Positions 225-17,983 are shown, numbered from the stretch's first letter. The stretch: DNA of 64,000 nucleotides from Candidatus Latescibacterota bacterium (GCA_965222075.1 OZ244937.1:2528001-2592000); one strand, 5' to 3'. Notes: a model not told the origin generated them from the letters alone. Numbers and translations: made by a program.

Positions 225-530
225 TCACACTCCAAAAATCGACTCCACATCCGTAAACACCGGCAGAAGCATCAGAACGATAAAAAAGAGGACCGTAATC
301 GCCAGCACCCAGAAAATGATCTGCTTTTCAGACACCAGGTGCATAAAGTAGCCGGCCACCAGCCCACCCTTAATGGTCGCGATAAACAGAGCAATCAGAA
401 CCGTGATCGCTACTGACTGGATGTGGAGATACGAAACCCCAACGGTCACCACAGTCAGCACGGACAGCGCGGCAAAAACGGTCAGATAGATCCTGACGTG
501 TTTTCTGATCTCTTCAGCGCTTTCGGCCAT
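225..530 (-). CDS. cytochrome c oxidase subunit IV family protein
   Basis: 101 aa, 3 TM helices, IATIKGGLVAGYFMHL motif typical of prokaryotic subunit IV; follows subunit III. Confidence 0.85.
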   Translation of the reverse strand: MAESAEEIRKHVRIYLTVFAALSVLTVVTVGVSYLHIQSVAITVLIALFIATIKGGLVAGYFMHLVSEKQIIFWVLAITVLFFIVLMLLPVFTDVESIFGV

Positions 531-540
531 TGCAAACTCC

Positions 541-1146
541 TTACAGGAGGTAGAGCGTCGGAAACAGGAAGATCCAGACCAGGTCTACAAAGTGCCAGTA
601 AAGCCCCGCGCACTCGATCCGGTTGGCAAACCGATCGGGTTCCGTCTTCCACATGGCGCTTCCGGGAAACAACAGATAGAGATTCACGATAATTCCGCCC
701 ACCACGTGCAGCCCGTGGAGGCCGGTCATTGTAAAATAAGTCGCATAAAAGGTGCTGGTTGAAGGATGGATGCCAAGATGGAACTTGTGCGTATACTCGA
801 AATACTTGACAACCAGGAAGACGAACGCTAAGAGAATGGTCAACCCCAGATAGAGCTGGAACCTGCCGAACTGGTCCATCTTCAGCGACGCCCATGCCAT
901 GACCATCGTCACACTCGAAGCGATCAGCACAAACGTATTGAGGGTCGCCAGCGGGACGTTCAGCAGTTCCCATCCGTGCGGCCAGGTCTCGGCGCCAACC
1001 CGGAGCAGCACCAGGGTGGAAAAAAGCGCGCCGAACAGCATGACCTCGGAGGCCAGAAAGAGCCAGAGGCCCAGCTTCCCGTTGTAGACTCCGGTTATGG
1101 GATGAGGTTCAACATTGTATGGAATCTCGACAGACACGATTGACAT
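541..1146 (-). CDS. ctaE: cytochrome c oxidase subunit III (short form)
   Basis: WLFLASEVMLF, TGLHGLHV and YWHFVDLVWIFLF motifs. Confidence 0.93.
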   Translation of the reverse strand: MSIVSVEIPYNVEPHPITGVYNGKLGLWLFLASEVMLFGALFSTLVLLRVGAETWPHGWELLNVPLATLNTFVLIASSVTMVMAWASLKMDQFGRFQLYLGLTILLAFVFLVVKYFEYTHKFHLGIHPSTSTFYATYFTMTGLHGLHVVGGIIVNLYLLFPGSAMWKTEPDRFANRIECAGLYWHFVDLVWIFLFPTLYLL

Positions 1147-1200
1147 CTCCTTTTTAAGCCCCCCCTCAATTGCGGAATGCGGATTGGGGAAGGGAGGGGT

Positions 1201-3018: not shown

Positions 3019-3028
3019 AGGAAACTCC

Positions 3029-3796
3029 TCAGAATGAAAATTCGTCCTCCTCTTCTTCGACCTGCTGCTCATTCAGCCAGGCCTCGAGCGCTTCGGGTGT
3101 CTGGATGTGCACCTGGCCCCGCATCCGGAAATGGCCCAACCCGCAAAGCTGCGCGCAGGCCAGGTCGAACGTGCCCGTCCTGGTGGCCTCAAACCAGAAC
3201 CGGATTTCCGTCCCCGGGATCGCGTCCTGGGTCAGGCGCAGCACCGGGACCTTGAAACTGTGGATCACGTCCTTGGAAGAGAGGCGAATGATGACCGGTC
3301 TGTTCACAGGAATATGCAGGTTATTAATAGAATTGATGTCGTCCTTCGCATTGGGATCGTTCGGGTCCAGGCCCAGCAGGTTATCGCTTCTCACAAACTC
3401 GGGGGCGGTCCGGCCGTAGACCCCATCCTTTCCCGGATAGTGAATGTTCCACGCAAACTGTTCAGGCACCACCCGCACCACAAAAGCATCCGCATCGGAC
3501 GGAAAATCGTGCTTGAATGCCGACCAGGCAGGTATGGAAATCCCGATCAAAAGAACCGCTTCTACAATCACAATGCCGATTTCCACGTACTTGGAGGTCG
3601 TTCCTTTGACATCCTCATAGGTAGCCCTCGGGTTGGCCCCCTGCCGAAAACGGATCAAACAATAAAAAAAATAAATTCCCCAGCCCACAAACAGCGCAAT
3701 CATAAACCAGTGGATCCAGTTGATCAGGAAATCGACAACGTGTCCATGGGTCGAGACATCCATCGGAAGCCAGTATCCGTAAACCTTTTCTTTCAT
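3029..3796 (-). CDS. ctaC: cytochrome c oxidase subunit II (CuA; no fused cytochrome c)
   Basis: DVIHSF plus CAQLCGLGHFRM CuA motif, two TM helices; start MKEK after GGAGGG (alternative start 3838). Confidence 0.93.
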   Translation of the reverse strand: MKEKVYGYWLPMDVSTHGHVVDFLINWIHWFMIALFVGWGIYFFYCLIRFRQGANPRATYEDVKGTTSKYVEIGIVIVEAVLLIGISIPAWSAFKHDFPSDADAFVVRVVPEQFAWNIHYPGKDGVYGRTAPEFVRSDNLLGLDPNDPNAKDDINSINNLHIPVNRPVIIRLSSKDVIHSFKVPVLRLTQDAIPGTEIRFWFEATRTGTFDLACAQLCGLGHFRMRGQVHIQTPEALEAWLNEQQVEEEEDEFSF

Positions 3797-3834
3797 AATG
3801 AGCAGCCCTCCCGCATTAGAGGCACCAATACCTA

Positions 3835-4578
3835 TCACGGCTTCTTCTTTTTCTTAGGTATCTGGAACGTGAAATCAATCGCCGCAGACTCCCCATCCTT
3901 CACCGCCACCTCCTGGGTCTGAGAACCCAGTCTCTCGTGCCAGACCTCAATGGTATAAGTCCCGGCAGGCAGATCCTTCAACGCAAACGTCCCCCCATCG
4001 CCGGTCACATTGAAGAAGGGATGGTCCATCACCCCGATGTATGCCTGCATCCAGGGATGCACATCGCACTTGACCGGGATCATTATCTCCGTCTTGTCGA
4101 AGGTCTTGGTCATCTGCTTCCTGAACTTCGGCATGGCCTGGTTGAACTCGGTATTGACCTTCGGCTTGGGATGGATATTGTGCAGTGTGCCGTCGCTGTT
4201 CAAAATCTTGATCGGCTGGCCGGCCCGGACACCGAACACATGGGGCTTGTACATACATCCGTTCTGATCCAGAACAACCGGCTCTGTCGGCACGTCAAAT
4301 TTCTTGCCCTCCAGTCCCGTCTTGACATACACAAAGACATTGTGCAACGCCCCGTCGTCGTCCACCACCACCACCTCACTGAGCGCGGGGGCCTCGGTGT
4401 GTTTGCCCGCACAAACCGGGTCGGCGGCCATCTGGAGCTTCTTGCGTCCGGGCTTTTTCCCCCCGGGCAACTCCAGTTTAACCGTGCCCGCAACCGTAGC
4501 CCCTGCCATCGCCTCGGCCGCAACAAAACAGAAGAAACAAAAAGCCAGAAACGATGAACACAACCTTCGCCGAGTCAT
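3835..4578 (-). CDS. secreted cupredoxin-like / carboxypeptidase-regulatory-like domain protein
   Basis: Signal peptide, HNIH...CDVHPWM type-1-copper-like ligand set, C-terminal beta-sandwich (LPAGTYTIEVWHE); AGGAGAGG RBS. Confidence 0.75.
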   Translation of the reverse strand: MTRRRLCSSFLAFCFFCFVAAEAMAGATVAGTVKLELPGGKKPGRKKLQMAADPVCAGKHTEAPALSEVVVVDDDGALHNVFVYVKTGLEGKKFDVPTEPVVLDQNGCMYKPHVFGVRAGQPIKILNSDGTLHNIHPKPKVNTEFNQAMPKFRKQMTKTFDKTEIMIPVKCDVHPWMQAYIGVMDHPFFNVTGDGGTFALKDLPAGTYTIEVWHERLGSQTQEVAVKDGESAAIDFTFQIPKKKKKP

Positions 4579-4652
4579 TGATCCTCTCCTTATAGATAAA
4601 GTGTTCAAAATTCTCCACACACATCCGATGAATCGAAAAGTTCCAGCCGCAT

Positions 4653-7600
4653 CTACCGCCGGCTCAACCGTTTCTCCTGGTGCAGGCCGTAGATAATATA
4701 ATCGGTCAGCACCTCAATCACGTACCGGGTTGGCAGTTCGATCCCGCCGCCTTCCGGTTCAACACCTTCGGGAAGCGTTAAATACCTGGCCAGTTCCATC
4801 CCGCCCGCCTCTTCCGGAAGATACGTCATCTCGTCCCCGAAAAACGTCGGCATCTTGGTCCCCGGCTGGATCTTCTGCGGGTCCCACAGCCAGTCCCTGA
4901 TCCACTCCGGCATCAGGCGCTGCCGGGCCATCGCCAGGTCGGGCGCCCAGCTTGCCGGATCCCCCTTCGGCTTGATATCGCCCTGCTGGTGGCAGGTAAA
5001 ACAGTTGTAAACCTCTACGCTGAACAGCGCATCTGCCCCCTGCATCTCTCTTGGGGACAGGCGCTTTTCTGCAAACGTATGGTAGGGGAACTGCTGCTTG
5101 TCCAGCCGGGAGAAATAGGTGACGATGTCAATCGCGTCCTGATCTTCAAACCCGAAAGTCGGCATCCGCACCTCCAGCCAGGGCCGGATCGGAACCGGCG
5201 CCTTCAGGAAGCTGAAGAACCAGTCCGGCTGCACCTTCTTCCCCTCGCCGTTGAGCACCGGCGGCGTAAACCCGACCGCCTCCGCCTCCAGCACACCTTC
5301 CTCCGCATAGGCCTTCACCAGCACGTCTTCGATGGCCCTGCCCTCCCCCTCGATCACGTGACACCCTTTACAGTTGCGCTTGTAAACCAGCCACCGCCCC
5401 TTCTCAATCTCAATCTCCTCGGGCGTAGGCTGCTTCTTGGCGGTCGGGAAGATAAACGACTTGGAAAAGCTCAGCAGCGCCGTCGTCACCGCATGCGCGT
5501 CCTCATCGCTGAATCCGAAGAACGGCATCCGCAGCTTCTCGTCGAAGGTCTTCACCTTCCCCTCGTCGAAAACCCTTGGCTTCTTCAGCTTGGTAAAGAG
5601 CCAATCGTGGCGGGTATAAGGAATCTTTTCCGATTCATAAAGGGTATGAGTACTCTTTCCCAGCTTGAGTGCGAGGAGCCCAAAATCCAGCTTGTCCACA
5701 TCCTTGCTCCCCTCCTCCGTCAACTCCGTCCCAACCGGCGTGGTGTCCTCAAATCCGGAAATGTGATGGCAGCCAAAGCACCCCTGCCGCGCAATAATCT
5801 TCTCCCCCAGCCAGAGATCCCGCTGCAGGCCAGACATCGCATCCAGCCTTTCCCTGGCCTGGGCAACAGGCAGCCGGCCCTGCAGATAGCTCAGAACGAG
5901 CTGGTCCCGCACCGCCCTGTCTACCTCCGCCGGCCGCCGATTCTCAAAGTCCGGGTTGCGCAGCGTCAACAGATAGGCCGTAATATCGGCCGCTTCCTGG
6001 TCCGTCAGCCGCAGGTTGGGCATCAGCGTTTCGGAAAAATAGGCCTCCGGGGCCTTCAACCAGGCGAAGAGCCATCCGGCCGACAGCTTACTGCCCACAT
6101 CGTTGATATTTGGCCCAAAATTGCGCAGTCCGTACTCCTGCCCCACATCGTCGTCTTTGCCCACCACGTGGCACCCCCGGCACCCCACCTTGGCCACTAA
6201 GGCCTCGCCCCGCACGCCATCCCCTTTCACGGGCGGATCGGGGTAGATCGGCCGCTCCGACGTCTCAAACAGGTAGGTCACAATCGCGTTGATCGCGGCC
6301 GTGTTCCGCGTCCTGTCCTCCGGAGAATCCACATTGGGCAGATCGAAAATCTTGGGCATCTTGGTGGCAGGCCGGAACCCCTTGGGGTCTCTGACCCAGT
6401 TGAGCGCCCACCGCCTCTCCACCTTTCCGGCGATCTTCCGAAGGTCCGGCCCCACCTTCCGCAGGTCCTGGAACCCCGGGATCGCAATCTTGTGGCAACC
6501 AAAGCACCCCACCGTTCGGATCAGGTGCATCCCCCGGTTCAGCCGATTGGCGTGCTTAACCTCCACCCCCCCCGTATGGCACTGGGCGCACGACGCCTCC
6601 CCGTACTGGCTCGAAAACATCGGATAGTCCCAGTACTTCATCTTTTTCCACCCGTATTGTTTTTTCCACCGCTCGGCCTCGGCCGCATCGGTGGGCGTGT
6701 GCGCCGTGTTGTTAAAGGTGATCCCCCGGTCCCGGCCCAGATGGCAGGTGGTACACCCCACCTGGTCGACCGGATGGGCCGACGCGCTGCTCAGGTAGAG
6801 GTCCATCCTGGGGTGTGTTGCAAATACCTTGGTTCGCGCAGGCCGTTCTTCCTCCGGATAGACCTCCTCGATGTATTTTCTGAGGACCTCATCCCGGAAG
6901 AATCCGGTCTCCGGATCGGTCTCATACCCCTCCCGATCAATGTTCGCATGGCAGGTGGTGCACCGATCCACCTTGGGTACCTGGGTAAAATTGATATCGT
7001 TTCGCAAATCTCCCAGCACAATCTGCCGCACCTCGACCGACGGATCGATAAAATCGACCATCGGCAGATTCCGGAACACATTGGGAAAACTGGGCACCAG
7101 GTTTATCAGATTCCGCTGGAGAAGCTCGGCCTTTTGGAAAAGAGCGCTCTTCTGCTGCTCCAATGCTTTTTTGCGACCGGCCACCTCGTCTACGATCTTC
7201 TGCTGCGCCGCCTGCTTTGCCTCTACCCCCTCTCTGACCAGCCGGAACACCCCGATCATACTGTCCATACGCGCCATTACAGCCTTCTTCCTGGCGGCCT
7301 CTTTCTCGTGCCCGTGATGAGCGGCCTCTTCATACTCATACTTAATCACATCGTACCCCGCCTTTTCAAACTTCCCATCCTGATCGGCTTTGTAGAACGC
7401 CCCCCTCAGGTCTTCCAATACCTCAAGAGCCGCCTCATAGCGCTCCTTCTGCGTCTGAATAGAGGCCTCAACCTCGGCAATCTCAGCCTCGATCTTTTTT
7501 AGTTCGCCCTGGTCAATCTCCCGCTGCGCCGCCTGCAAATCCGCCTCGACCTTGTATTGTTCCATAGCCATCGCTTCCCGCTGCAGGCCCTTCCACTCCC

Positions 7601-7730
7601 GATCATAGTCGTCCCAGACCATCCAGATGGTGGAAATAACCAGCGCAACGCTGGAAAGCGCAAAGACCGTATTCAGCTTATTGACATTGTAGACAAAGTC
7701 CAGAAAGCCCTGCTGTCGCTGCTCGTTCAT
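4653..7730 (-). CDS. membrane-anchored multiheme cytochrome c (8 CxxCH) with coiled-coil stalk
   Basis: CTTCH, CTTCH, CAQCH, CFGCH, CRGCH, CFGCH, CKGCH, CFTCH; N-terminal TM; long E/K/A/Q-rich helical region; xMP distal-ligand motifs. Confidence 0.9.
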   Translation of the reverse strand: MNEQRQQGFLDFVYNVNKLNTVFALSSVALVISTIWMVWDDYDREWKGLQREAMAMEQYKVEADLQAAQREIDQGELKKIEAEIAEVEASIQTQKERYEAALEVLEDLRGAFYKADQDGKFEKAGYDVIKYEYEEAAHHGHEKEAARKKAVMARMDSMIGVFRLVREGVEAKQAAQQKIVDEVAGRKKALEQQKSALFQKAELLQRNLINLVPSFPNVFRNLPMVDFIDPSVEVRQIVLGDLRNDINFTQVPKVDRCTTCHANIDREGYETDPETGFFRDEVLRKYIEEVYPEEERPARTKVFATHPRMDLYLSSASAHPVDQVGCTTCHLGRDRGITFNNTAHTPTDAAEAERWKKQYGWKKMKYWDYPMFSSQYGEASCAQCHTGGVEVKHANRLNRGMHLIRTVGCFGCHKIAIPGFQDLRKVGPDLRKIAGKVERRWALNWVRDPKGFRPATKMPKIFDLPNVDSPEDRTRNTAAINAIVTYLFETSERPIYPDPPVKGDGVRGEALVAKVGCRGCHVVGKDDDVGQEYGLRNFGPNINDVGSKLSAGWLFAWLKAPEAYFSETLMPNLRLTDQEAADITAYLLTLRNPDFENRRPAEVDRAVRDQLVLSYLQGRLPVAQARERLDAMSGLQRDLWLGEKIIARQGCFGCHHISGFEDTTPVGTELTEEGSKDVDKLDFGLLALKLGKSTHTLYESEKIPYTRHDWLFTKLKKPRVFDEGKVKTFDEKLRMPFFGFSDEDAHAVTTALLSFSKSFIFPTAKKQPTPEEIEIEKGRWLVYKRNCKGCHVIEGEGRAIEDVLVKAYAEEGVLEAEAVGFTPPVLNGEGKKVQPDWFFSFLKAPVPIRPWLEVRMPTFGFEDQDAIDIVTYFSRLDKQQFPYHTFAEKRLSPREMQGADALFSVEVYNCFTCHQQGDIKPKGDPASWAPDLAMARQRLMPEWIRDWLWDPQKIQPGTKMPTFFGDEMTYLPEEAGGMELARYLTLPEGVEPEGGGIELPTRYVIEVLTDYIIYGLHQEKRLSRR

Positions 7731-7754
7731 CAAGCGTCTCCAGCGTTTCTCCGG

Positions 7755-8831
7755 TTAAATATTGAAGAAATGTTCCGGGATAGCAACGATATACTTCAAA
7801 TTGAAGATCCAGCGCAGCAGCATCTTAACGGGGAGGGCGACCATGGTGAGGAAGAGAAAGACCATCACGCTGTAACGGGCGAACCCCATGTTCTTGTAGA
7901 AATCCTTGAAAAGGGTTCGAGCAAGAATCGGCGGAGGGAGCAGGTAAAAAAGGCCAACGAGCAAGAACCCCCAGATCTCGCGGGTCAACCAAAAGGTGGG
8001 CAGCCCTGTTCCCAACATCTTGACGTAGATGTACTCGGAGAGGTTGACATTGACCAGGGCTTCTAACTTGTGCACATCCCAGTATTCGTAGGGACCAAAA
8101 ATGTTCCAGTTGGGGCCCCGCAGGAAGGTTCCAATGGTAATCATACTCACCCAGAGCACAACAAACCCGAACAGGAATACCGTAATTGCAAAACGTCGTT
8201 CCTTGAACGTATAATAGCCGGCCCCCCGGGGATTCCGATCCATGTAGGGGATGGCCATCAACCCCACAATCACCAGCGTGGGCAGCACGACCCCCGCAAT
8301 CCAGGGATCGTAATAGACCAGCATCTCCTGCAAACCCAGGAAGTACCAGGGGGCCTTGGAGGGGTTGGGCGTCTTGGCGGGATTGGCCGGCTCTTCTAAG
8401 GGGGCCTTGATCAGGATCGACCAGAGGATTAAAAACACGGTCGCCAGCGTGAGGCAAATCAGCTCTGTGTAGACCAGGTGCGGCCAGGTCAGCACCTTCT
8501 CCTTGAACTCCTGTTTCTCTATCGGGGCTTCGCCATTCGCCATTCGTTCATCGTTTTCATACCCCTGCTTCAGACTGTACCACACAAAGAATCCCACCAC
8601 ATAAAGCAGCATAACAATCGGGATATTGTCTCCCTTGGTCACAATAATCCGAAAGTTCGGATCCTGAAAACTGACAACAAAAAAAACAATCGAGCCGATC
8701 AGTGCAACAAGCCCGACCTTGTTGGTCCAGACCCACCGGGTACGGAGCGCCAGGAAGAAGAGGACAGCGAATAATGGTAAAAAAATCTTAGGGGCCGTAA
8801 TCCAGTTGATCAACCCTTTCAGAGCTTCCAT
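7755..8831 (-). CDS. Rieske/cytb complex subunit IV-like protein (cytochrome b C-terminal part) with extra TM helices
   Basis: TWPHLVYTE and PLEEPANPAKTPNPSKAPWYFLGLQE align with PetD WPN...PADPFATPLEILPEWY; follows cytochrome b. Confidence 0.85.
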   Translation of the reverse strand: MEALKGLINWITAPKIFLPLFAVLFFLALRTRWVWTNKVGLVALIGSIVFFVVSFQDPNFRIIVTKGDNIPIVMLLYVVGFFVWYSLKQGYENDERMANGEAPIEKQEFKEKVLTWPHLVYTELICLTLATVFLILWSILIKAPLEEPANPAKTPNPSKAPWYFLGLQEMLVYYDPWIAGVVLPTLVIVGLMAIPYMDRNPRGAGYYTFKERRFAITVFLFGFVVLWVSMITIGTFLRGPNWNIFGPYEYWDVHKLEALVNVNLSEYIYVKMLGTGLPTFWLTREIWGFLLVGLFYLLPPPILARTLFKDFYKNMGFARYSVMVFLFLTMVALPVKMLLRWIFNLKYIVAIPEHFFNI

Positions 8832-8906
8832 AATCTCCCTCTAATCTATTGAAAATTGAATATCGAAAACGCTTCCAATATTCAATAATTCAATTCTCAA
8901 TATCCC

Positions 8907-9692
8907 CTACATCGGCCCGGAAATTCCGCCGTCTTTTCGGACCCGCCAGAAGTGAAGGCCCATCAGGGCGGCCGCTACGAACGGAATGGCCAGACAGTGC
9001 AGCACATAGAAGCGCAAAAGGGCTCCCTCGCCCACAAACCTTCCCCCCAAAAGCGCAAACCGCGCATCGTTCCCTGCGTGGACCAGGCTAATATCCCCCA
9101 ATTTCAACAACGCCGCACCCGGCCCCTCGTGGCCTAAGAAAGGGGTCGCCCGCGCCATATTCGACCCAACCGTAATCGCCCAGATGGCGAGCTGGTCCCA
9201 GGGCAGCAGATAGCCTGTAAAGCTCAGCAGCAGCGTCAGCAGCAGAAGGATAACGCCGATCGCCCAGTTGAACTCCCGGGGGGGCTTGTAAGCCCCGGTC
9301 ATAAACACCCGGAGCATGTGCAGCCACACCGTGATCACCATCGCATGGGCACCCCACCGGTGGATCTCCCGCATAATTCCCAGGGGCACCTGCTCGCCCA
9401 GATCGATCATATCGGTATAAGCATACTCTAAGGTGGGACGGTAATAAAACATCAGCAGAATGCCCGTGATCGTCTCCACAAGGAAAATAAAAAAGGTAAG
9501 CCCACCCATACACCAGGTGTAGCGCACCCGGATGCCCGACTTGGGCGTCCGGACCGGATGCAGGTGCAGGAAAACGTTGGTCAGCACCACCTGCGCGCGG
9601 CCCCGTTCCTCCCTTGGAATATCGTGGCGGAAAATCGACTTCCAGATCTGCGAACGTTTCACCTGGTCCATCAGGCCAGATCTTTTTGGCAT
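8907..9692 (-). CDS. petB: cytochrome b N-terminal (cytochrome b6-like) subunit
   Basis: WCMGG (heme ci Cys position), IHRWGAH...[22 protein letters not shown]...LHF heme b ligands. Confidence 0.9.
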
Positions 9693-9744
9693 AAGACACG
9701 CTCCATCAAATTCAGTGTGATTCTCTGCAAAGGAGGCTTTAAGT

Positions 9745-10521
9745 TCAGATCTTGAGAAACGATTCCGGATTCTCCCACTGCCCCTTCTCGTACTGGTACT
9801 TATACGTCTTATCCACCATCACCTGCCCGTCGTCGGCCAGCACAATACGCGCCCGTTCCAGAGGCCGGGGCGCGGGGCCTTCAAAGTTGATCCCCGTAGA
9901 ATAGAACCCGCTCCCGTGACAGGGGCACTTGAACTTCCCCTCGTTGGCCAGCCAGTTCGGCGTGCACCCCAGGTGGGTGCAGACCGAAATCAGGGCAAAC
10001 ATCCCCTCTGTATTCTTAATGATCCAGATACTGAACTTATCCTTCCACCGTTCGTCCACCCCCAGATCGTACTCATCCGGAGTTCCGATCTTGAACGACT
10101 GGGGCGGCTCAAAAAGAACGTTTGGAAACATGAACCGTCCGGTTGCCGCCAGCCCTGCTGCGGCCGCCGAGGCGAACGCCACCCACGCCAGCGTCAGCCA
10201 GGACAAAAACCCCCGCCGGGTCGTGATCCCCCCCTCCGAAACCGGAACCGTCCTGGGAGGTCCGGGCCGGATCGTTGGCGGTGCGGGTGTCCTCTGGAGG
10301 ATCACCTCTCGCTCGACGGCGCCTTCCTCCTTTTTGGCGGTAAGCGCGCGAGCCGCAGCCGCCCGGTCGGCCGTTGTCGCAGCCTTCTTGGCCTGCGCCT
10401 TCTTCGCAGGCGCAGGCCCCACCCCGCCCTTCGCCTTTCGCATGGCCTCCGCCTTGGCCTTGGCCCGAGCCACACGGTCTGGAATATCGTCAAATTCCGA
10501 AAGATCGACGTTCTCTTCCAT
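9745..10521 (-). CDS. petC: Rieske 2Fe-2S subunit with long N-terminal extension
   Basis: CTHLGC and CPCHGSGF boxes, GPAPRPL, TRRGFL Tat-like motif before the TM helix. Confidence 0.92.
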
Positions 10522-10608
10522 AGATAAATCACTCCCGGAATATCAGCTGCCTGGAGGTAAAAAACACCGCCGTAGTAGAAAAATTAGCCTGATTTGAAAA
10601 CTTTGGCC

Positions 10609-10637
10609 AATATATCGAAACAAGCTCATATTGTCAA
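10609..10637 (-). promoter_or_regulatory. sigma70-type promoter of the Rieske-cytb-oxidase operon
   Basis: TTGACA-N17-TATATT on the minus strand about 90 bp upstream of the Rieske start. Confidence 0.65.
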
Positions 10638-10716
10638 GCTCGGATTTTGGACCTTTCAGGCTCCTTTTTAAAGATTGCTGGAAAGACCACGCACGACCGA
10701 CCGCAGACGGACGCCC

Positions 10717-11652
10717 TTACTCCCTCCACGCCTTCAGGACCTCGATGGCCGCCTGACGGACCTGCATATCAGGATCTACTCCCCGAAGATCCCGAAGCGT
10801 GGGCGCCATAGACCGGGCATCTAAGAGTTTCACCGCCCGGATCGCCTCTACCATAACATCCCGACGGCGCTCCCCGCTCATCTGCTTGAGCGTCTCCAGG
10901 TACTGGCGGTTCAACATCTCACTCAGAACATCCAACCCGGCGTCATTCCCGGCCCCCGCAAGCTGCAGGGCCGCATTCCAGCGAACGTCGGGCACCCGGT
11001 CCCGTAGCGCAGCCTCCAGCACGGGCCGTACACGGGAATCCTTCAACTGCCCCAGGGCGTAAACCGCCGCCTTTCGAATCCCGGCGTCGTCGCTGGAGGC
11101 CAGCGCAATCAGAGAAGGCACGGCCCGGGCGTCCCCCTGCGCGCCCAGGGAGAACGCCGCATAAATCCGGGTCTCGTCATCCGGATCGTCCAGCGCAGAG
11201 ATCAAAACAGGTACAACCGCAGGGTCCTTGACCATTTTCATCGCAAGCGCGAGATAACGCCGCACCTGGGGGTCGTCGGAACGGGAGGCCTCAAAAACCC
11301 GGATCATCTCCCCGACAAATTTTGGGCGCACCCGCCCCTGGCGCTGCTCTTCGGCCAGCACCTTGGAAAGTTCGTACGCCGCCTGCCACCGGCTGTTGAT
11401 CCCGCCGACCCGAATCGTATCGAGATAGTCCTCCGCCGTCTTGTCCTCTGCCGTCAAAAGTCCCAACAGCAGATAAATCGCCACGCCGACAATCACAATC
11501 GTCAGCGGAAAAACCACAAACTGTCCGATCAGCCGCGACCTGGGCACATCCTGCTCTTTGATCGGAGCGGTCGCTTCCTCCACGATCTGCCTGAGCTCCT
11601 CCGGTGCCGATGTCTGGCCGTCTGTAGGAGGAACTTTCTCTCCTTCAGGCAC
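10717..11652 (-). CDS. membrane-anchored HEAT/PBS-lyase repeat protein
   Basis: One N-terminal TM, repeated ALDDPDDETRIYAAFSLG / DDAGIRKAAVYALG / DVRWNAA units. Confidence 0.85.
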   Translation of the reverse strand: MPEGEKVPPTDGQTSAPEELRQIVEEATAPIKEQDVPRSRLIGQFVVFPLTIVIVGVAIYLLLGLLTAEDKTAEDYLDTIRVGGINSRWQAAYELSKVLAEEQRQGRVRPKFVGEMIRVFEASRSDDPQVRRYLALAMKMVKDPAVVPVLISALDDPDDETRIYAAFSLGAQGDARAVPSLIALASSDDAGIRKAAVYALGQLKDSRVRPVLEAALRDRVPDVRWNAALQLAGAGNDAGLDVLSEMLNRQYLETLKQMSGERRRDVMVEAIRAVKLLDARSMAPTLRDLRGVDPDMQVRQAAIEVLKAWRE

Positions 11653-11704
11653 GTAGCGACTCCCTTTGATAACCTATCCCACAAGCGGGTGTATGAATGT
11701 CAAT

Positions 11705-11733
11705 AATGTAAACCAAATCATAAGCCCTGTCAA
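11705..11733 (-). promoter_or_regulatory. sigma70-type promoter of the HEAT gene
   Basis: TTGACA-N17-TACATT. Confidence 0.6.
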
Positions 11734-11858
11734 GAAATTGATGACACGATAATAAGAAAAAATGATTTCTTACATTAAGGGATATTCGGCGTCCACACCC
11801 TTCCGGCCGCGGGATATCAGCGGTTGTTCCCCGATACCATAAACAGGAGAGTTCTCCC

Positions 11859-11887
11859 TTGACAAGTCCGACAAAAGGCCGTATTTT
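11859..11887 (+). promoter_or_regulatory. sigma70-type promoter of the ferredoxin gene
   Basis: TTGACA-N17-TATTTT; this argues against the TTG at 11859 being the start codon. Confidence 0.55.
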
Positions 11888-11933
11888 ATGTCTTGGTCTA
11901 TCAATTTATTGGTTCTCTCCAGGAGGGCACAAG

Positions 11934-12671
11934 GTGGCCGAAGTCGATCTCTCCCAGTTTGACGGGATCTCAGACCGGGTTGCCCGCGCCAGGGCCAAAT
12001 CCGAGGCGATGCGCAAGGCAAAAGCGGGTGGGGGTGAAAGCGCCTCTGCTGCACCTGAAGCAGCCGTTGCGGAGGGGGCGCAGGGGGATGGAGGGGATGC
12101 CGTTGAAAAAGAGGCCCCGGGCCTCCCCATTCTCGAATTCAACCCCGGCATCCACTTCAAATGGAAAGGTCGGGCGGGCAGAACCATCGGCATCCGCTAC
12201 GACCTCGTCAGCTTTGTCTACGATGACGATCCCGACCAGGTCGTCACCGCCGACCGGTACCGGCTCAGCCATGCCCATGCGGAGGGAGACCTCGAATTTG
12301 CCCCCAAAGCCGAGGTCTATCGCCCCGACCGGGCCGGCAAGAGCGACCGGGTCGACTACCACGACTACCTGTGGCTCGACACCCGAAAGGGCATGACCGC
12401 GAAGAAAAGGCGCCCCAAGATTCTTGCCATCATCAACCCGGACTACTGTACCGGCTGCAACGCCTGCATCGAAGTCTGTCCTACCGACTGCATTGAAGAG
12501 GTCGATGTGGCCGACGCGGGTCTGGACGGTCTTGGCCACTTTTGCGAAGTCCGGCTCGAAGACTGTATCGGGTGCAAACAGTGCGTGCCGATGTGTCCCT
12601 GGGAGGCCATCGACATGTTCGACACCCAGCAGGTTGAAGAGGCCTACGGCATTCCGGTGGGAACCCTATAG
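11934..12671 (+). CDS. 2[4Fe-4S] ferredoxin with extended N-terminal region
   Basis: CTGCNACIEVCP and CIGCKQCVPMCP motifs; GTG start after AGGAGG at 11921. Confidence 0.85.
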   Translation: MAEVDLSQFDGISDRVARARAKSEAMRKAKAGGGESASAAPEAAVAEGAQGDGGDAVEKEAPGLPILEFNPGIHFKWKGRAGRTIGIRYDLVSFVYDDDPDQVVTADRYRLSHAHAEGDLEFAPKAEVYRPDRAGKSDRVDYHDYLWLDTRKGMTAKKRRPKILAIINPDYCTGCNACIEVCPTDCIEEVDVADAGLDGLGHFCEVRLEDCIGCKQCVPMCPWEAIDMFDTQQVEEAYGIPVGTL

Positions 12672-12695
12672 TCTCACGCCCCAGGCCCTATGGTG

Positions 12696-12729
12696 AAGCG
12701 GAGGTCGACACCCGTCGGCTTCCGCTTTT
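12696..12729. terminator. hairpin terminator between the convergent ferredoxin and rluD genes
   Basis: AAGCGGAGGTCGAC-N4-GTCGGCTTCCGCTT followed by T residues. Confidence 0.6.
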
Positions 12730-12779
12730 CTGTAAGAAGCTGGCCCCCTTCACATTCGGTCAAAATAACGATTCGCGGC

Positions 12780-13742
12780 TCACGACTCACCACTCGCAAC
12801 GATCTTCTCCAACACCTCCCGCATATCCTCCGGCGGCTCGGCCTCAAACCGGAGGGTTTCTCCCATGACCGGGTGGACAAACCCCAGAGCCGCTGCGTGC
12901 AGCATCTGTCGCGTGGCCCTCTTGAGCAGCGCCCTGGCCTCGCCCCGAAATTGTGGGGCAATCCCCTTTATCCTGCCCTGTCCCCCGCCGTAGACCGTAT
13001 CGCCAAAGACCGGATGTCCGATATGGGCCATGTGCACCCGGATCTGATGTGTCCGCCCCGTTTCCAGCCGCACCAACAACAGAGAGAGAAAATCGTAGGT
13101 CGCCGCTACCTCAAACCGTGTGGCCGCATGGCGCCCGCCTTCCTCTCGCACGGCCATCCGCTTTTTTTCCTTCCGATGCCGGCCAATCGGCGCCTCCACC
13201 CGCCCCGTCCTCTCGGGCAGGCGGCCCCAGACCAGCGCCGTGTAGCGCCGCATCGTGGTTCTCTCCTCAAACTGCCGGGCAAGCCTCCGGTGTGTCAGGT
13301 CGTCTTTGGCCACCACCACCAGCCCCGACGTCTCCTTGTCCAGCCGGTGCACAATCCCGGAACGGAGCACCCCGTTGATTCCCGACAGCCGGTCGCAGTG
13401 TCCCAGCAGCGCATTCACCAGCGTCCCCGACCACACCCTCCCGGCCGGGTGCACCACCATCCCCGCCGGCTTGTTGACCACCAGCAGATGATCGTCCTCA
13501 AAAAAAATATCCAGAGGAATCGCCTCTGGATGAATCGACGTCGGTTCAGGCGGGGGAGGGGAGATCGCCACCCGATCTCCGGCCGAAACCCGATAGCTTG
13601 GCCGCACCTCCCGTCCGTTGACCCTGACGTGCCCTGCGGCAATCAAGTGCTGAAGGCGGGATCTCGAAAACGCCGGGCAGGCCGCTGCCAGGAGCCGGTC
13701 TAAGCGTTCCCCTTCACGGTCGGGGTTGATCTCCATCTCCAT
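12780..13742 (-). CDS. rluD: RluA/RluD family pseudouridine synthase
   Basis: S4 domain RLDRLL, NKPAGMVVHP, HRLDKETSG, GRTHQIRVH. Confidence 0.92.
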   Translation of the reverse strand: MEMEINPDREGERLDRLLAAACPAFSRSRLQHLIAAGHVRVNGREVRPSYRVSAGDRVAISPPPPEPTSIHPEAIPLDIFFEDDHLLVVNKPAGMVVHPAGRVWSGTLVNALLGHCDRLSGINGVLRSGIVHRLDKETSGLVVVAKDDLTHRRLARQFEERTTMRRYTALVWGRLPERTGRVEAPIGRHRKEKKRMAVREEGGRHAATRFEVAATYDFLSLLLVRLETGRTHQIRVHMAHIGHPVFGDTVYGGGQGRIKGIAPQFRGEARALLKRATRQMLHAAALGFVHPVMGETLRFEAEPPEDMREVLEKIVASGES

Positions 13743-14202
13743 CCGTCTCTCCCTCACCCTTCTTCTGGAATCCATAGGAAAGAATCAGCAGACCGGCCCC
13801 GGTGGTCACACAGGAATCGGCCAGGTTAAACACCCACCAGCGGAGTGACCCGACCCCAAAATCCAGGAAATCGATCACCACGCCAAACCGCAGCCGGTCC
13901 ACCACATTTCCGATCGCACCGCCCAGGACCAAAGCCAGGCCCACAGCAGCCAGCCGCTCTGCTGCCGGCAGCCGCCACAGCAACACCCCCACCAGGACCA
14001 GAGCCGCCCCCGCAAAGAGGAGGTGGAGGACCTTCCCACCCAGCGTCAGCCCGAAAACCGCCCCCGGATTGTGGATATAGGTCAATTTAAAAAATGACCC
14101 CAGGACGGGAATCGATTCCCCCAGGGCCATCGTCTCCATTACCAGCCACTTGGAAGCCTGATCCAGCAGCACCACGATCCCTACAATCCAGAGCGTCCGC
14201 AC
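13714..14202 (-). CDS. lspA: lipoprotein signal peptidase
   Basis: DQASK, NPGAVFG, GGAIGNVVDR, VIDF, FNLADS; GTG start after AGGAGG (the track's N-terminal extension runs through a repeat). Confidence 0.92.
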   Translation of the reverse strand: MRTLWIVGIVVLLDQASKWLVMETMALGESIPVLGSFFKLTYIHNPGAVFGLTLGGKVLHLLFAGAALVLVGVLLWRLPAAERLAAVGLALVLGGAIGNVVDRLRFGVVIDFLDFGVGSLRWWVFNLADSCVTTGAGLLILSYGFQKKGEGETDGDGDQPRP

Positions 14203-14217
14203 CCCACCTCCTGTTGA

Positions 14218-14270
14218 ATTTCGGATTGCGGATCTGCGGATTGAAGCGCTTTTGTTCCGCAATCCGAAAT
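14218..14270. repeat. heptamer-based inverted repeat
   Basis: ATTTCGGATTGCGGA (14218-14232) and TCCGCAATCCGAAAT (14256-14270) are a perfect 15-bp inverted pair. Confidence 0.8.
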
Positions 14271-14287
14271 GATGTTCCTCCATCTAC

Positions 14288-14674
14288 CTAAACGAACTTA
14301 CGCTTCTGTTTCTGTTCCGACTCTTTACAGGGCACACAGACCGTGGTGGTGGGCACCGCCTCAATCCGCGCTTTGGGTATCTCCTTACCACAGACGCGGC
14401 ATATCCCGAACCTTCTATCCTGAATCCGCTTCAGAGCATCCTCCACCTGCTCCAAATACGCGCCGTTCCGGGAGGAGAAGTAATAGGCCTTCTCCCGTTC
14501 AATAGCGTCGCTGCCCAGTTCGGCCATATGATCGGAATAGGTCAGATCTCCCGAAGAATCGGCCACATCCGCATTCATCGAATGCGCTTCCAGCAGCCCC
14601 ATATCCCGCATTATCGACAACCGCTTTTCTTCGAGCAGCCGTCTGAAATGTTCGAGATCTTCCTCAGCCATCAT
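14288..14674 (-). CDS. TraR/DksA C4 zinc-finger protein
   Basis: Coiled coil, HMAELGSD tip, CRVC...RIEAVP...CVPC. Confidence 0.88.
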   Translation of the reverse strand: MMAEEDLEHFRRLLEEKRLSIMRDMGLLEAHSMNADVADSSGDLTYSDHMAELGSDAIEREKAYYFSSRNGAYLEQVEDALKRIQDRRFGICRVCGKEIPKARIEAVPTTTVCVPCKESEQKQKRKFV

Positions 14675-14737
14675 CCCCCTCCTGTGCCGCCGAAACCCCA
14701 TCCGATCCGGCTCAGCCGCTTTTTCTTAGAAACACCT

Positions 14738-17700
14738 TCACCGGCTCTGCGTCAATCTTATACGCGATATACCGATGGTGCCGGACAACCCGTTGAGCTG
14801 ACACTCCTGCTTCAGCAAACAGACGTCCGGTAGCTCGCCGATGAGCACATCCTCCGCGAGCGTCTCACCGCCGACGTAGTCACGGTGGCGCGCCACGGCC
14901 TCCTCCAGCGCCCCAGCGCCCCGAACGCCCACCCGGATGCGGTCGGAGACGTCCAGTCCGGTCTCCTTACGCATATTCTGTACCCTGTTGACAAACTCGC
15001 GCGCCGTGCATTCGGCGATCAGCTCGTCGTCTAAGCGAACGTCAAGCCCAACGCCTAAGTTGCTCTCAATGGCCACGATCAGATCGTCCTTCTCTCTGCG
15101 CTGGACTTCCAGGTCGTCGAGGCCGATCTCACCGGAGGCGGCCTCGATCTTTTCACCGGCGCGTAGGCGTTTGATCTCATCGGGCGTCAACTGCTGGATG
15201 CGCGTTACAACCTCCACCATCCGTTTTCCAAAACGGGGCCCCAGGATCCGGAAGTTGGGCTTGTAGGACACCTCGCTCAGTTCGGTCTCGTCCTCGATCA
15301 GCACCACGTTCTTGATGTTCAACTCATCGGCAATCAGTTTCTGAATCTCCATCAGCGCATCCTGGCTGCGTTCATCGGGCGGCAGCAGATAGAGCCGTCG
15401 CAGCGGCTGGCGGACCTTCAAATTGTGCTTGCTTCGAAGCGAGCGGCCCAGGCCCACGGCGCGCATTGCCAGGTACATCTGTTCTTCGAGATCCGGGTCG
15501 CGCAGCGACTCGTCGGCCTGCGGCATGTCGCACAGGTGTACGCTCTGGGGCGCATCGGCATTGTACGAGCGGACGAGGTTCTGGTAGATCTGTTCCGTCA
15601 CGAACGGAAGCACCGGAGCCAGGACCTTGACAAACGTGACCAGCACCTCATAAAGCGTCGCATAGGCCGACGCCTTGTCGGCATCGTCCTCCGACTTCCA
15701 GAAGCGCCGGCGGCTACGCCGGATGTACCAGTTCGTCAACTTTTTCACGAAGGCCACCATCACCGGCGCCGTCTTGTACAGCCGGTAGGCCTCCATCTCG
15801 GCATTGATGTCGTGCAGCAGCGTCTGGAGCTCGGAAATTATCCACCGGTCGAGCTTGTGCTCGCGCTCTACGCCCTCCGCCCGCTCCGGCGTCCAGCCAT
15901 CGATATTCGCGTACGTGACGAAAATGCCGCTGTAGGCATTCCACAGCGGGATGATCACGGCTCGCAGGCTCTCCTGGATCCCCCTCTCGCTGATGCGCAG
16001 TTCCTCAGCCTTGAGCGCGGACGAGTTCAGGAGGTAGAGCCGCAGGGCATCCGCGCCGTAGGCATCTAACATCTCGGTCGGATCGGGGTAGTTCTTCAGC
16101 CGCTTGCTCATCTTGCGCCCGTCTTCGGCAAGTAGCATGCCCGACACGATGCAGTTCTTGAACGCCGGCCCGTCGAACAGCGCGGCCCCCAGCACCGTGA
16201 GGGTGTAAAACCAGCCGCGGGTCTGGTCCAGGCCCTCCGAAATGAAATCAGCGGGAAAATTCGCCTCAAAAAACGCCCTGTTCTCAAACGGATAGTGGGT
16301 CTGCGCGTAAGGCACCGAACCCGACTCGAACCAGCAGTCGAGCACCTCCGGGATACGCCTGAGCACACCCCGTCCCGTTGGGCTGGGGATCTCGATCCGG
16401 TCGATCAGGTGCTTGTGTAAATCCTCTACCTTCTGTCCGCTGAGCGCCTCGAGTTCCTCCCGGCTGCCCACGCAAACAGCCTCCCCAGTCTCCTCGTTCC
16501 GCCACACCGGCAGCGGCGTGCCCCAGTACCGGTTCCGGCTGATCGCCCAGTCGCGCGCGTCTTCCAGCCAGCGTCCGAACCGGCCGTCTTTGATATGTTC
16601 TGGAACCCAGTGGATCTGCCGGTTTGCGGCGACCATCCGCTCCTTGATCGACTCGATCGCCACAAACCAGGTCGAAACCGCCCGGTAGATCAGCGGGGAC
16701 TCACACCGCCAGCAGTAGGGGTAGCCGTGGACCAGCGTGCCTTCGGAAAACAACAGCTCTTCCTCCCGCAGCCGCCGGGTAATGGCGCGGTCCGTATCCT
16801 TGACGAACTGCCCCTCGTAGCCCGGGACCTCATCCGTAAACGCGCAGTCCTCGTCGATTGGACACACCACCGGGATGCCCTGCGTCTGCCCGAGCCGGTA
16901 GTCGTCCTCCCCGAATCCCGGCGCGATATGAACGATCCCCGTGCCGTCTTCCGTCGACACGAAATCCGCCGCAACCACCCGAAAGGCTCCTTCCTCCCGC
17001 TTATCCTCAAAATCCTCGAACAGCGGCTCGTAGGTCATCTGCAGCAGCGCCTCAACCGGCTGGTCATCCACCCGGTCCACCCCTTCCCTGTGCGCCTTGA
17101 ACACCTCCTCGAAAAGCGGCTTTGCAACGATCAACTGCTCCCCGTCCACCATATGCACGCGCACATAGGCAATCTCTTCCCCCAATGCCAAGGCCATGTT
17201 CGACGGCAGCGTCCAGGGCGTGGTCGTCCACGCCAGGATCGACGTGTTCTCTTCCCCCCGCACGCTGAAGCGCACCGTAATGGACGGATCCTGCGTGTCC
17301 TGATAGCCGCCCAGGTTGACCTCGAAGTTCGACAGCGGCGTGGCGCAGCGGGGGCAGTAGGCTAAGGAGTAATATCCCTCGTAAATCAGTTCCTTTTCCC
17401 ACAGGCTCTTGAACACCCACCACACTGACTCCATAAAGTCCGCGTCCATCGTGCGGTACTGGTTGTTCCAGTCCACCCACCGGCCACACCGCTGGATGAT
17501 CTGTTTCCACTCCGATGTGTACCGAAGCACCAGTTCGCGGCAAAACTCGTTGAACTCGCTGACCCCGAACTTGAGAATGTCGCGCCTTGACTTCAGCCCC
17601 AGCTGCTGCTCGGCCTCGTTCTCGACGGGTAGGCCGTGGCAGTCCCACCCGAACCGTCGTTCCACACAATAGCCGCGCATCGTCCAGTACCGGAGCACAA

Positions 17701-17926
17701 CGTCTTTAATAATCGAGGGCAGAAGATTCCCGTAGTGGGGCAGGCCGCTGGCGAACGGAGGGCCGTCGATAAAGATAAAAGACTTCGATTCCGGACGGCC
17801 CGCCACGGACTTCTCGAAGGTCCTGTTCTCCTCCCAGAAGCGAATGACCTCCGCCTCCATCTTCGGAAAATCGGCCTGGCCTGAGACCTCTTGAAACACG
17901 GCGTTGCTCTTTTTTGCAGTTCCCAT
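14738..17926 (-). CDS. ileS: isoleucyl-tRNA synthetase, type 2
   Basis: DGPPFASGLPHYGN, GWDCHGLP, WTTTPWTLP, DWAISRNRYWG, KMSKR; long type-2 C-terminus without the type-1 Zn finger. Confidence 0.95.
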   Translation of the reverse strand: MGTAKKSNAVFQEVSGQADFPKMEAEVIRFWEENRTFEKSVAGRPESKSFIFIDGPPFASGLPHYGNLLPSIIKDVVLRYWTMRGYCVERRFGWDCHGLPVENEAEQQLGLKSRRDILKFGVSEFNEFCRELVLRYTSEWKQIIQRCGRWVDWNNQYRTMDADFMESVWWVFKSLWEKELIYEGYYSLAYCPRCATPLSNFEVNLGGYQDTQDPSITVRFSVRGEENTSILAWTTTPWTLPSNMALALGEEIAYVRVHMVDGEQLIVAKPLFEEVFKAHREGVDRVDDQPVEALLQMTYEPLFEDFEDKREEGAFRVVAADFVSTEDGTGIVHIAPGFGEDDYRLGQTQGIPVVCPIDEDCAFTDEVPGYEGQFVKDTDRAITRRLREEELLFSEGTLVHGYPYCWRCESPLIYRAVSTWFVAIESIKERMVAANRQIHWVPEHIKDGRFGRWLEDARDWAISRNRYWGTPLPVWRNEETGEAVCVGSREELEALSGQKVEDLHKHLIDRIEIPSPTGRGVLRRIPEVLDCWFESGSVPYAQTHYPFENRAFFEANFPADFISEGLDQTRGWFYTLTVLGAALFDGPAFKNCIVSGMLLAEDGRKMSKRLKNYPDPTEMLDAYGADALRLYLLNSSALKAEELRISERGIQESLRAVIIPLWNAYSGIFVTYANIDGWTPERAEGVEREHKLDRWIISELQTLLHDINAEMEAYRLYKTAPVMVAFVKKLTNWYIRRSRRRFWKSEDDADKASAYATLYEVLVTFVKVLAPVLPFVTEQIYQNLVRSYNADAPQSVHLCDMPQADESLRDPDLEEQMYLAMRAVGLGRSLRSKHNLKVRQPLRRLYLLPPDERSQDALMEIQKLIADELNIKNVVLIEDETELSEVSYKPNFRILGPRFGKRMVEVVTRIQQLTPDEIKRLRAGEKIEAASGEIGLDDLEVQRREKDDLIVAIESNLGVGLDVRLDDELIAECTAREFVNRVQNMRKETGLDVSDRIRVGVRGAGALEEAVARHRDYVGGETLAEDVLIGELPDVCLLKQECQLNGLSGTIGISRIRLTQSR

Positions 17927-17983
17927 GACTGTTATCACAAACTTTTGAATTCATCCGGTTGATTGTTCAGCTTTCGATTCTTG

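Follow-up and report, generated by a model that had tools for sequence, protein, structure and literature searches.

In PMC5600118, the cytochrome b6f complex is described with FNR bound to it, and the entry of electrons from ferredoxin at haem cn, i.e. a ferredoxin:plastoquinone reductase activity, is proposed. The Rieske/cytochrome b complexes of the anammox bacterium Kuenenia, as presented in PMC12954380, combine a b6-like four-helix cytochrome b and subunit IV with a hexa- or octahaem cytochrome c which replaces cytochrome f. They also contain a cytoplasmic iron-sulfur (Fe-S)/flavin adenine dinucleotide (FAD) oxidoreductase subunit for nicotinamide adenine dinucleotide (phosphate) (NAD(P)), proposed to take electrons from haems bN/cN. 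For anammox complexes, a split quinol oxidation that reduces ferredoxin has been proposed as well. Here we analyse a locus from a Candidatus Latescibacterota bacterium, found in a stretch of 64,000 nucleotides (GCA_965222075.1 OZ244937.1:2528001-2592000, the window below), in which a 2x[4Fe-4S] ferredoxin is dedicated, by genetic linkage, to one b6-type complex and carries the same peptide of 27 residues, which we will call the tag, as the N-terminus of the Rieske protein. The locus may offer a natural system for an old question that lacks a tractable one: does ferredoxin donate electrons at the haem ci side of b6-type complexes, or does it withdraw them there?

The complex resembles those of Kuenenia in its b6-like cytochrome b, subunit IV, multihaem cytochrome and an Fe-S protein on the negative side. 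In contrast to anammox, a small 2x[4Fe-4S] ferredoxin serves as the extra protein; no FAD or NAD(P) domain is seen in it, and it is encoded divergently instead of within the operon, which itself continues into aa3-type oxidase genes; the accessible part of PMC12954380 describes no counterpart of the peptide shared by the Rieske protein and the ferredoxin. With b6f, so far as the available part of that source covers it, the locus has in common a b6-type complex with the haem cn/ci cysteine and a proposed entry of ferredoxin electrons from the negative side. However, the Latescibacterota ferredoxin carries its own putative docking parts (tag and beta-barrel), and the matching tag sits on the Rieske N-terminus, not on a stromal subunit. 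Neither the tag nor a tethered Rieske/ferredoxin system was found described in open PubMed Central papers and bioRxiv, supplements aside.

Redox docking by parts borne on leashes is known from the CpcD-like domain of cyanobacterial FNR, from the FNR-binding motifs of TROL and Tic62, and from NdhS, a small SH3-like barrel at the ferredoxin site of NDH-1. The proposed Latescibacterota arrangement is similar in that a short docking part and a flexible linker would place a soluble redox protein at a membrane complex, and as in NdhS there is a small barrel, here the middle domain of the ferredoxin. It is unlike all of these systems in having no sequence relation to them and in that the same peptide is found on both partners.

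A peptide shared by a Rieske protein and a ferredoxin

The tag is a real, sharply conserved and undescribed module of narrow, paired distribution. In the Rieske iron-sulfur subunit (258 residues, 9745..10521, minus strand; PF00355 at E 1.3e-7, and a PetC-type NCBIfam match at E 1.1e-19, which is under the family cut-off) it occupies residues 5-31 (10429..10509, minus strand, by translation). In the ferredoxin (245 residues, 11934..12671, plus strand) it occupies residues 4-30 (11943..12023, plus strand), reading VDLSQFDGISDRVARARAKSEAMRKAK. The ferredoxin is translated from a GTG start at 11934, with GGAGGG 8 nucleotides upstream, so that its N-terminus reads (M)AEVDLSQFDGISDRVARARAKSEAMRKAK, and database protein P0004 (245 residues, 100% identity over 100% of the query) has the same start codon. 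Aligned codon by codon, the two tags are identical in 22 of 27 residues and in 61 of 81 nucleotides, and 12 of the 22 codons for identical residues differ synonymously. An earlier note on this DNA had given the same residue and codon counts, which are exact, and every example that it gave of such codons (CTT/CTC, CGT/CGG, GTG/GTT and CGA/CGC) is correct. A low-complexity linker, described as Ala/Pro/Lys/Glu-rich in the note, comes after each peptide, and the remainders are unrelated, consisting of a Rieske 2Fe-2S domain in one protein and two 4Fe-4S motifs in the other.

A hidden Markov model (HMM) of the two peptides matched only the Rieske tag (E 7e-18) and the ferredoxin tag (E 2e-18) among 96,718 six-frame open reading frames (ORFs) of the 5.36-Mb genome, and since the next-best ORF is at E 0.65, these matches are far beyond chance. 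The peptide had not been recognised as a named domain, and there is indeed no Pfam-A or NCBIfam match over residues 1-31; a profile of 36 tags run against PDB sequences gave a best E of 1.8, i.e. chance level. A likeness to PCP_red (PF08369, IPxFVRxKAR) did not hold up: the family matches neither of the two proteins nor their N-terminal pieces of 48-49 residues at E up to 10, and a six-frame search of the same genome at this threshold gave three weak matches, none at the tag loci.

Distribution and age of the tag

The same 36-tag profile was searched in 168 genomes of the phylum, and the tag was found in 30 of them: the genome of the window together with 21 out of 21 in family f1, 6 out of 31 in f2 and 2 out of 3 in f3, while the 112 genomes of eleven other families have none. 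Each positive genome contains two or three copies, all within the one Rieske/ferredoxin locus, and the Rieske protein and the ferredoxin-side protein carry the tag together in 30 of 30 genomes, a co-occurrence that the earlier note had suggested checking. Its prediction that other redox proteins would be found to carry the peptide failed, with no such carrier in the same genome and none outside the locus in the 168 genomes.

The genes themselves follow the same pattern. A full-length ferredoxin orthologue (E 8.6e-91 or better) is present in 28 genomes and a split form in two more (G037 and G039), which together are the same 30 that have the tag; other genomes match the generic Fe-S domain of the ferredoxin only. 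A close Rieske orthologue (73-100% identity) is likewise restricted to the 30 tag genomes, being interrupted by a contig end in G044, and distant Rieske relatives (53-62% identity, in G008, G009, G010, G031 and at a second locus of G039) do not have the tag. Absence of the tag from orthologues in close relatives, which would have spoken against the interpretation in the earlier note, is thus not observed, since the tag is kept in the locus of 30 genomes, including all of f1. The divergent order of the Rieske, HEAT-repeat and ferredoxin genes is kept in 29 of 29 related loci of the species collection (a 30th locus, L032, is an unrelated Fe-S-domain match and was left out of the count). Over the window and these 29 loci, two tags are found on 20 of the Rieske proteins and a single one on the other 10; of the ferredoxin-side proteins, 28 are singly and 2 doubly tagged. 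Where a Rieske protein has a second tag, this begins at residues ~75-102 (spanning ~75-105) and is therefore internal, which shows that the element does not need to be N-terminal. The alignment of the ferredoxin has the tag kept in 24 further orthologues, and D6, L7, I13, D15, R16, R19, A20 and K23 are invariant across all 36 tags, while the linkers that follow each tag vary in length and sequence across orthologues.

Within the same genome, Rieske tag 1 and the ferredoxin tag share on average 19.9 of 27 residues and 56.8 of 81 nucleotides and have 11.3 synonymously different codons (n = 30), and between genomes they share 19.7 of 27 residues; tags of the same type share 22.2-23.5 of 27 residues across genomes, 22.3 being the figure to set against the 19.7. 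Since the two tags of one genome are no more alike than those of different genomes, we are dealing with an old duplication under purifying selection, with no gene conversion, and this duplication predates the split of families f1, f2 and f3. The idea of selection on the peptide rather than a recent duplication of DNA, put forward earlier from the codons of the window, holds in all 30 genomes.

A docking element at the Rieske/cytochrome b complex?

We propose that the tag is a docking element by which the ferredoxin-side protein is tethered to the Rieske/cytochrome b complex on its cytoplasmic side, an association which we infer and to which we would give an even chance. Tags on flexible leashes would hold the ferredoxin-side protein, composed of tag, leash, barrel and 2x[4Fe-4S] domain, at this face of the complex, and the low-potential Fe-S carrier would thereby be brought within reach of haems bn/ci for electron exchange. 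Electrons could flow either way, from ferredoxin to quinone, or in a split quinol oxidation which reduces ferredoxin. That the partners bind physically and that quinone receives electrons by way of haem ci, the core of the original suggestion, is an inference, and overall the earlier interpretation is partly supported. Docking is the best supported of the readings considered here, on account of the exclusivity of the tag, its co-occurrence on both sides, its conservation, the leash build, the f3 variant, the L048 ferredoxin and the NuoI/NuoC modules described below. If it is true, short peptides and two small domains suffice for binding assays, the partner of each complex could be found via its tag, and the long-debated link from ferredoxin to cytochrome b would become testable; if it is false, what is left is still a new, sharply conserved module of very narrow distribution.

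The build of both proteins would suit such a role. Each tag consists of an acidic/hydrophobic half (net charge -4 to -7, with conserved L, F and I) followed by a basic, Ala-rich helix (net charge +6), and the charge pattern is identical in every tag, resulting in a charge dipole. AlphaFold2 (AF2) models the tag as a short turn and a helix of 17-24 residues, with a predicted local distance difference test (pLDDT) score of 64-78; the linkers come out disordered. Behind the Rieske tag lies a cytoplasmic leash, residues 32-100 (10222..10428, minus strand, from an alignment of 17 orthologues), which is rich in Lys, Ala and Pro and leads to the twin-arginine motif TTRRGF (invariant R102 and R103) and then the membrane helix. 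The ferredoxin has a Gly/Ala/Glu-rich acidic leash instead, residues 31-62 (12024..12119, plus strand), with a net charge of -6, which is variable in length and sequence in the alignment and has AF2 pLDDT below 50 for residues 32-62. A small beta-barrel follows at residues ~63-125 (12120..12308, plus strand; AF2 pLDDT 81-89). A fold search with the ferredoxin model matched this barrel to CarD, Tudor and KOW folds, weakly, at Z 5-7, which is under the level separating relatives from common arrangements, so that the model allows us to call the middle domain Tudor/SH3/KOW-like in a weak sense only and without a family assignment; an ESM Atlas search with ferredoxin residues 1-130 returned no usable match. 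The 2x[4Fe-4S] domain occupies residues 164-245 (12423..12671 with the stop codon, plus strand), with two CxxCxxCxxxCP motifs at residues 172-183 and 211-222. It is of the bacterial 2x[4Fe-4S] type by its Fer4 family matches (PF00037 at E 4.8e-14 and PF12838 at E 1.5e-12), carries a net charge of -14 and is poorly modelled by AF2. A twin-arginine translocation (Tat) motif and hydrophobic helix after the tag are absent in the ferredoxin and are thus not found on every tag carrier.

What would the tag bind? Direct binding of the partner protein, at its beta-barrel or at the very acidic Fe-S domain, is a tentative possibility that we hold at well below even confidence; the candidate contact would involve the conserved acidic/hydrophobic half and the basic helix of the tag on the partner's barrel or Fe-S domain. 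That the two tags have a scaffold as their shared binding partner, for which the HEAT-repeat membrane protein from the gene between theirs would be a candidate, seems improbable to us, and a pairing of the tags with each other we consider very unlikely indeed. These three variants divide between them the confidence that we place in docking as a whole. The homotypic variant, which had been favoured alongside a scaffold in the earlier note, suffers from the properties of the helix: a hydrophobic face, as expected for a coiled-coil or amphipathic docking helix, was not found in the six tags examined, and the low hydrophobic moment (0.05-0.15) disfavours a classic homotypic coiled coil. A coiled-coil tag pair is unlikely for this reason and because the charge pattern of all tags is identical. 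The scaffold variant draws on the distribution of the HEAT protein, an orthologue of which is found in 31 of 168 genomes, namely the 30 with the tag and G008; this is compatible with a scaffold, but with G008 included the pattern is not tag-specific.

Several observations weigh against docking. The tag helix is not amphipathic (hydrophobic moment as above and mean hydrophobicity of -0.45 to -0.70 in the six tags) and has only two or three large hydrophobic residues. AF2 prediction of a natural two-tag Rieske N-terminus, from a 16-row alignment, shows three isolated helices (pLDDT 76-78, predicted template modelling score 0.20) that are not confidently packed. A test for co-evolution between the tags of the same genome gives no signal, with a mean excess identity of 0.26 residues; a few states are shared, namely MRAAK by the three f3 tags and DRVERAK by the three tags of L024, too few to count. 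Because all carriers are related, the 30 genomes represent few independent events. In G008 the HEAT orthologue goes with a Rieske protein bearing a different N-terminal module and with no ferredoxin orthologue. The orientation of the HEAT protein is left undecided by the positive-inside rule, with 2.0 vs 2.7 Lys/Arg in the two 15-residue flanks. A prediction of the complex of full-length ferredoxin, two 4Fe-4S clusters and Rieske residues 1-40 scored 0.00/0.01 against a mark of 0.32, in a run without controls, and counts neither way.

Charge, membrane surface and maturation

The charges of the tag suggest another way of working. A basic helix (+6) on a leash could act as an electrostatic 'fishing line' that captures acidic 2x[4Fe-4S] domains (-14) at electron-entry sites, with the ferredoxin's own tag acting in cis, by masking its Fe-S domain, or linking ferredoxins head to tail, and with neither tag pairing nor a scaffold. 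A precedent is found in photosynthetic complex I, where NdhS has a basic tail at the ferredoxin site. Not only do the charges fit, but basic residues lie all around the helix and its hydrophobic moment is low. In the f3 variant all tags are on membrane proteins while the small ferredoxin is untagged, and the related modules described below sit on NuoI (one to five) or NuoC (one), with no nuoE, F or G in the stretch of the L087 operon that was examined. However, it is awkward for this explanation that the ferredoxin itself is tagged in 28 of 30 genomes, and the invariant acidic/hydrophobic half, with D6, L7, I13 and D15, has no role in pure electrostatic capture. We therefore regard such capture as rather improbable.

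The same basic helix could instead hold the leash on acidic lipid head groups or on another polyanion, without a specific protein partner, and the two proteins would then share the tag only because both work at the membrane surface. The +6 helix followed by PAKKA-type Lys/Ala/Pro repeats in the Rieske protein would suit this, as would the fact that both carriers act, or are proposed to act, at the membrane. Yet a hydrophobic face is all but missing from the helix, two of the carriers, the Rieske protein and the f3 adaptor, sit in the membrane as integral proteins anyway, and a generic tail of this kind would be expected on other proteins too, of which there are none in 168 genomes. The strict conservation of D6, L7, I13 and D15 points to a specific site, and so a surface tail appears unlikely.

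The most informative variant is found in f3. In these genomes (L030 and L031) the divergent gene encodes two tags, a linker, a beta-barrel and, at the C-terminus, two membrane helices; its product has neither a cofactor motif nor any Pfam match. The barrel is homologous to that of the ferredoxin (E 2.5e-6), and a separate, untagged 2x[4Fe-4S] ORF of 105 residues lies downstream of the tagged barrel gene. The metagenome representatives P0058, P0060, P0071 and P0072 have an f3-like build with one to three tags. Since the tagged f3 protein needs neither Fe-S insertion nor recruitment to the membrane, the tag is neither a signal for Fe-S insertion nor required for membrane recruitment, which disfavours its interpretation as a maturation or localisation signal and leaves a structural, adaptor-like role.

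This bears on the third alternative, in which the tag is a handle for maturation, assembly or quality control: the two proteins would be recognised one after the other by some factor, for instance one that delivers Fe-S clusters or a chaperone that retains the Rieske protein until its export by Tat, and they would never be tethered to each other. It is true that both window proteins are Fe-S proteins and that the Rieske tag precedes the twin-arginine motif. However, in f3 the tagged protein lacks an Fe-S motif and the Fe-S protein is untagged, the Rieske protein has its second copy at an internal position, the ferredoxin lacks a Tat motif or membrane helix, NuoC as a carrier of the related module is without an Fe-S motif, and the other Fe-S proteins of the same genome are all untagged. 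The shared maturation or localisation signal that the earlier note had left as its alternative is thus weakened by the internal Rieske copies and by the cofactor-less membrane carrier of f3, and we think that such a handle has a small chance of being correct.

Returning to docking at the Rieske/cytochrome b complex, a paralogous operon offers a further comparison. At L048:8400-8657 (plus strand; G039, contig 69), a gene for an 85-residue 2x[4Fe-4S] ferredoxin, 41% identical to the Fe-S domain in the window, is flanked by the genes for subunit IV and the octahaem cytochrome within a Rieske/cytochrome b operon paralogous to that of the window. This in-operon ferredoxin indicates that the type of ferredoxin goes with the type of complex independently of the tag.

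Related modules on complex I subunits

The tag profile was also searched against 1.84 billion representative proteins at E <= 0.001, which gave 28 matches. Twenty of these were inspected as sequences, two (P0026 and P0051) are ferredoxin orthologues of the alignment, and the other 6 were not inspected. Most of the 20 are fragments or variants of the Latescibacterota proteins. There is no RnfC-like protein among them; the likeness to the Ala/Lys-rich C-terminal repeats of RnfC/RsxC, mentioned in the earlier note, is one of composition only (ARAKA-type), and no direct comparison with RnfC was made. Three matches of a different kind, P0075, P0076 and P0077 (E 1.6e-8 to 4.1e-7), are NuoI-like Fe-S proteins, whose relatives are named at source as Candidatus Marinimicrobia, Fidelibacterota or FCB group bacterium, and which have one to three C-terminal modules of ~65 residues, with up to five in metagenome loci.

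In a single comparison by hhalign, the first 32 of the 65 positions of the NuoI module align with the tag at a probability of 97.7% and E 1.8e-12. The motif common to the tag and the NuoI/NuoC module is xDLSxLNxIxDRVxRxKAK...R.GG. The second half of the module, two more helices with ...AAxxIKATLxxLGKLDxExEAxLAQL, is absent from the tag, and the alignment stops at template position 32 of 65; the Latescibacterota tag ends in GG and then continues into the low-complexity linker. The module is present in 54 of 80 marine metagenome loci, 42 times on the C-terminal tail of NuoI (1-5 copies) and 12 times, as one copy, on the N-terminus of NuoC, as at L087:4086-4808 (plus strand) and 11 similar loci; L052:6715-8481 (plus strand) is a further carrier among these marine loci. 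The tag profile matches 10 of the 12 NuoC N-termini at E < 1e-3, among 5,087 ORFs. A second module carrier within 7 kb was found in none of the 54 marine loci, a figure which refers to the flanks only and not to whole genomes. The operon of L087, the only one checked by Pfam, runs nuoA-B-C-D-H-I-J-K-L, and nuoE, F and G are absent from the interval that separates nuoD from nuoH.

The marine modules resemble the tag in being carried on linkers at the cytoplasmic side of a quinone-reactive complex and in the motif over 32 positions, and differ in their two further helices, which the Latescibacterota tag does not have. The NuoI and NuoC carriers place the module at another cytoplasmic electron-entry site. 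It is conceivable, though doubtful on present evidence, that the tag is one member of a family of modules on leashes, so far undescribed, marking the cytoplasmic electron-entry sites of quinone-reactive complexes in FCB-group bacteria, where they would recruit a low-potential Fe-S carrier. The entry sites would be the negative side of the b6-type Rieske/cytochrome b complex and the NuoI/NuoC top of an 11-subunit complex I without NuoEFG, where such a family would bear on the old question of its electron donor. If this is true, the haem-ci-bearing Rieske/cytochrome b complex wired to an aa3 oxidase would be a ferredoxin-coupled enzyme, either a ferredoxin:quinone reductase or one splitting quinol oxidation between oxygen and ferredoxin.

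A separate metagenome protein, P0080 (477 residues, from a cluster of 45 members), is a membrane-anchored SRPBCC/polyketide-cyclase-like protein with four NuoC-type modules (IEDRVxRAKAKSALVKAKR). Here, too, a complex subunit and another protein may have a module in common.

Genomic context

The rest of the complex is encoded at 4653..9692 on the minus strand, downstream of the Rieske gene. It comprises a cytochrome b6-like subunit of 261 residues (8907..9692, minus strand; PF00033 and PF13631), a subunit IV-like protein of 358 residues (7755..8831, minus strand; PF00032) and a membrane-anchored cytochrome c of 1026 residues with 8 CXXCH motifs (4653..7733, minus strand). By Pfam, cytochrome b is thus split into b6-like and subunit IV-like parts as in b6f-type complexes; cytochrome f was not found as the c-type subunit and the octahaem 1026-residue cytochrome stands in its place. 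The closest solved match of the cytochrome b is cytochrome b6 (E 2.4e-40), and its WCMGG is aligned with YCLGG of the solved protein, which contains Cys35 (1vf5_A numbering), the ligand of haem ci/cn in b6. The window's cytochrome b keeps a cysteine at the position of this ligand. No FAD/NAD(P)-binding Fe-S subunit is present at the locus, where the only extra Fe-S protein is the 245-residue ferredoxin with Fer4 families only, a statement for the locus and not the whole genome. Within the annotated stretch 1-17938 no photosynthesis genes were seen.

At 541-4620 (minus strand) the operon continues into a 261-residue protein with a CarboxypepD_reg-like domain and then COX2, COX1 and COX3, i.e. 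subunits II, I and III of a haem-copper oxidase of the aa3 type. The whole string of genes looks like a quinol-to-oxygen supercluster.

The gene for the HEAT (PBS-lyase-like) repeat protein, which has a single membrane pass, lies between both tagged genes at 10717..11652 (minus strand; PF13646 at E 1.9e-27), and the ferredoxin gene is divergent from it. The protein also has weak, below-cut-off matches to bilin lyases (CpcE at E 2.2e-10 and NblB at E 4.1e-10); a role for it as a factor acting on the thioether-linked haem ci is pure speculation. The divergent intergenic region (11653..11933) contains back-to-back promoter-like sites at 11733..11705 (minus strand) and 11859..11887 (plus strand), which are consensus matches only; a consensus scan of this region gives 4 such sites vs 0.8 expected.

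The Rieske leash shows two further features. A degenerate third tag-like helix at 10339-10371 (minus strand) is conserved among orthologues, and AF2 models this element as a helix in a two-tag Rieske orthologue. A Pro-rich stretch before the Tat motif (10252-10290, minus strand) is conserved in the 15 f1/f2 Rieske proteins aligned and missing in the two f3 proteins (L030 and L031), from the lineage in which the barrel protein comes with membrane helices of its own. The SH3-like barrel may have this stretch as a ligand, an anecdotal observation from a single lineage.

Untagged Rieske relatives have N-terminal extensions of their own. That of G008 (L045:6789-8006, minus strand; 62% identity) has a long one, with two copies of a ~45-residue module, LxAEQLRAAAEALGIEVKAHGRLGAGAMKRVQ, and the HEAT gene stands there at the operon end. 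The Rieske proteins of G010 (L046:7011-7766, minus strand) and G009 (L049:6488-7234, plus strand), at 54-56% identity and with no adjoining cytochrome b gene, have a Lys-rich extension with the repeat PQKAVSKR.

Metatranscriptome contigs from 4 of 4 runs of one study, labelled sponge metagenome, span the Rieske, HEAT and ferredoxin genes at an identity of at least 99%. Such contigs from RNA libraries speak for presence only, as level, strand and transcript ends cannot be read from them and carry-over of DNA is possible; positions 11739-12043 are uncovered in all four runs, and we draw nothing from this gap. DNA near-identical to 9700-12700 of the window is present in runs of nine studies, several of them labelled sponge metagenome.

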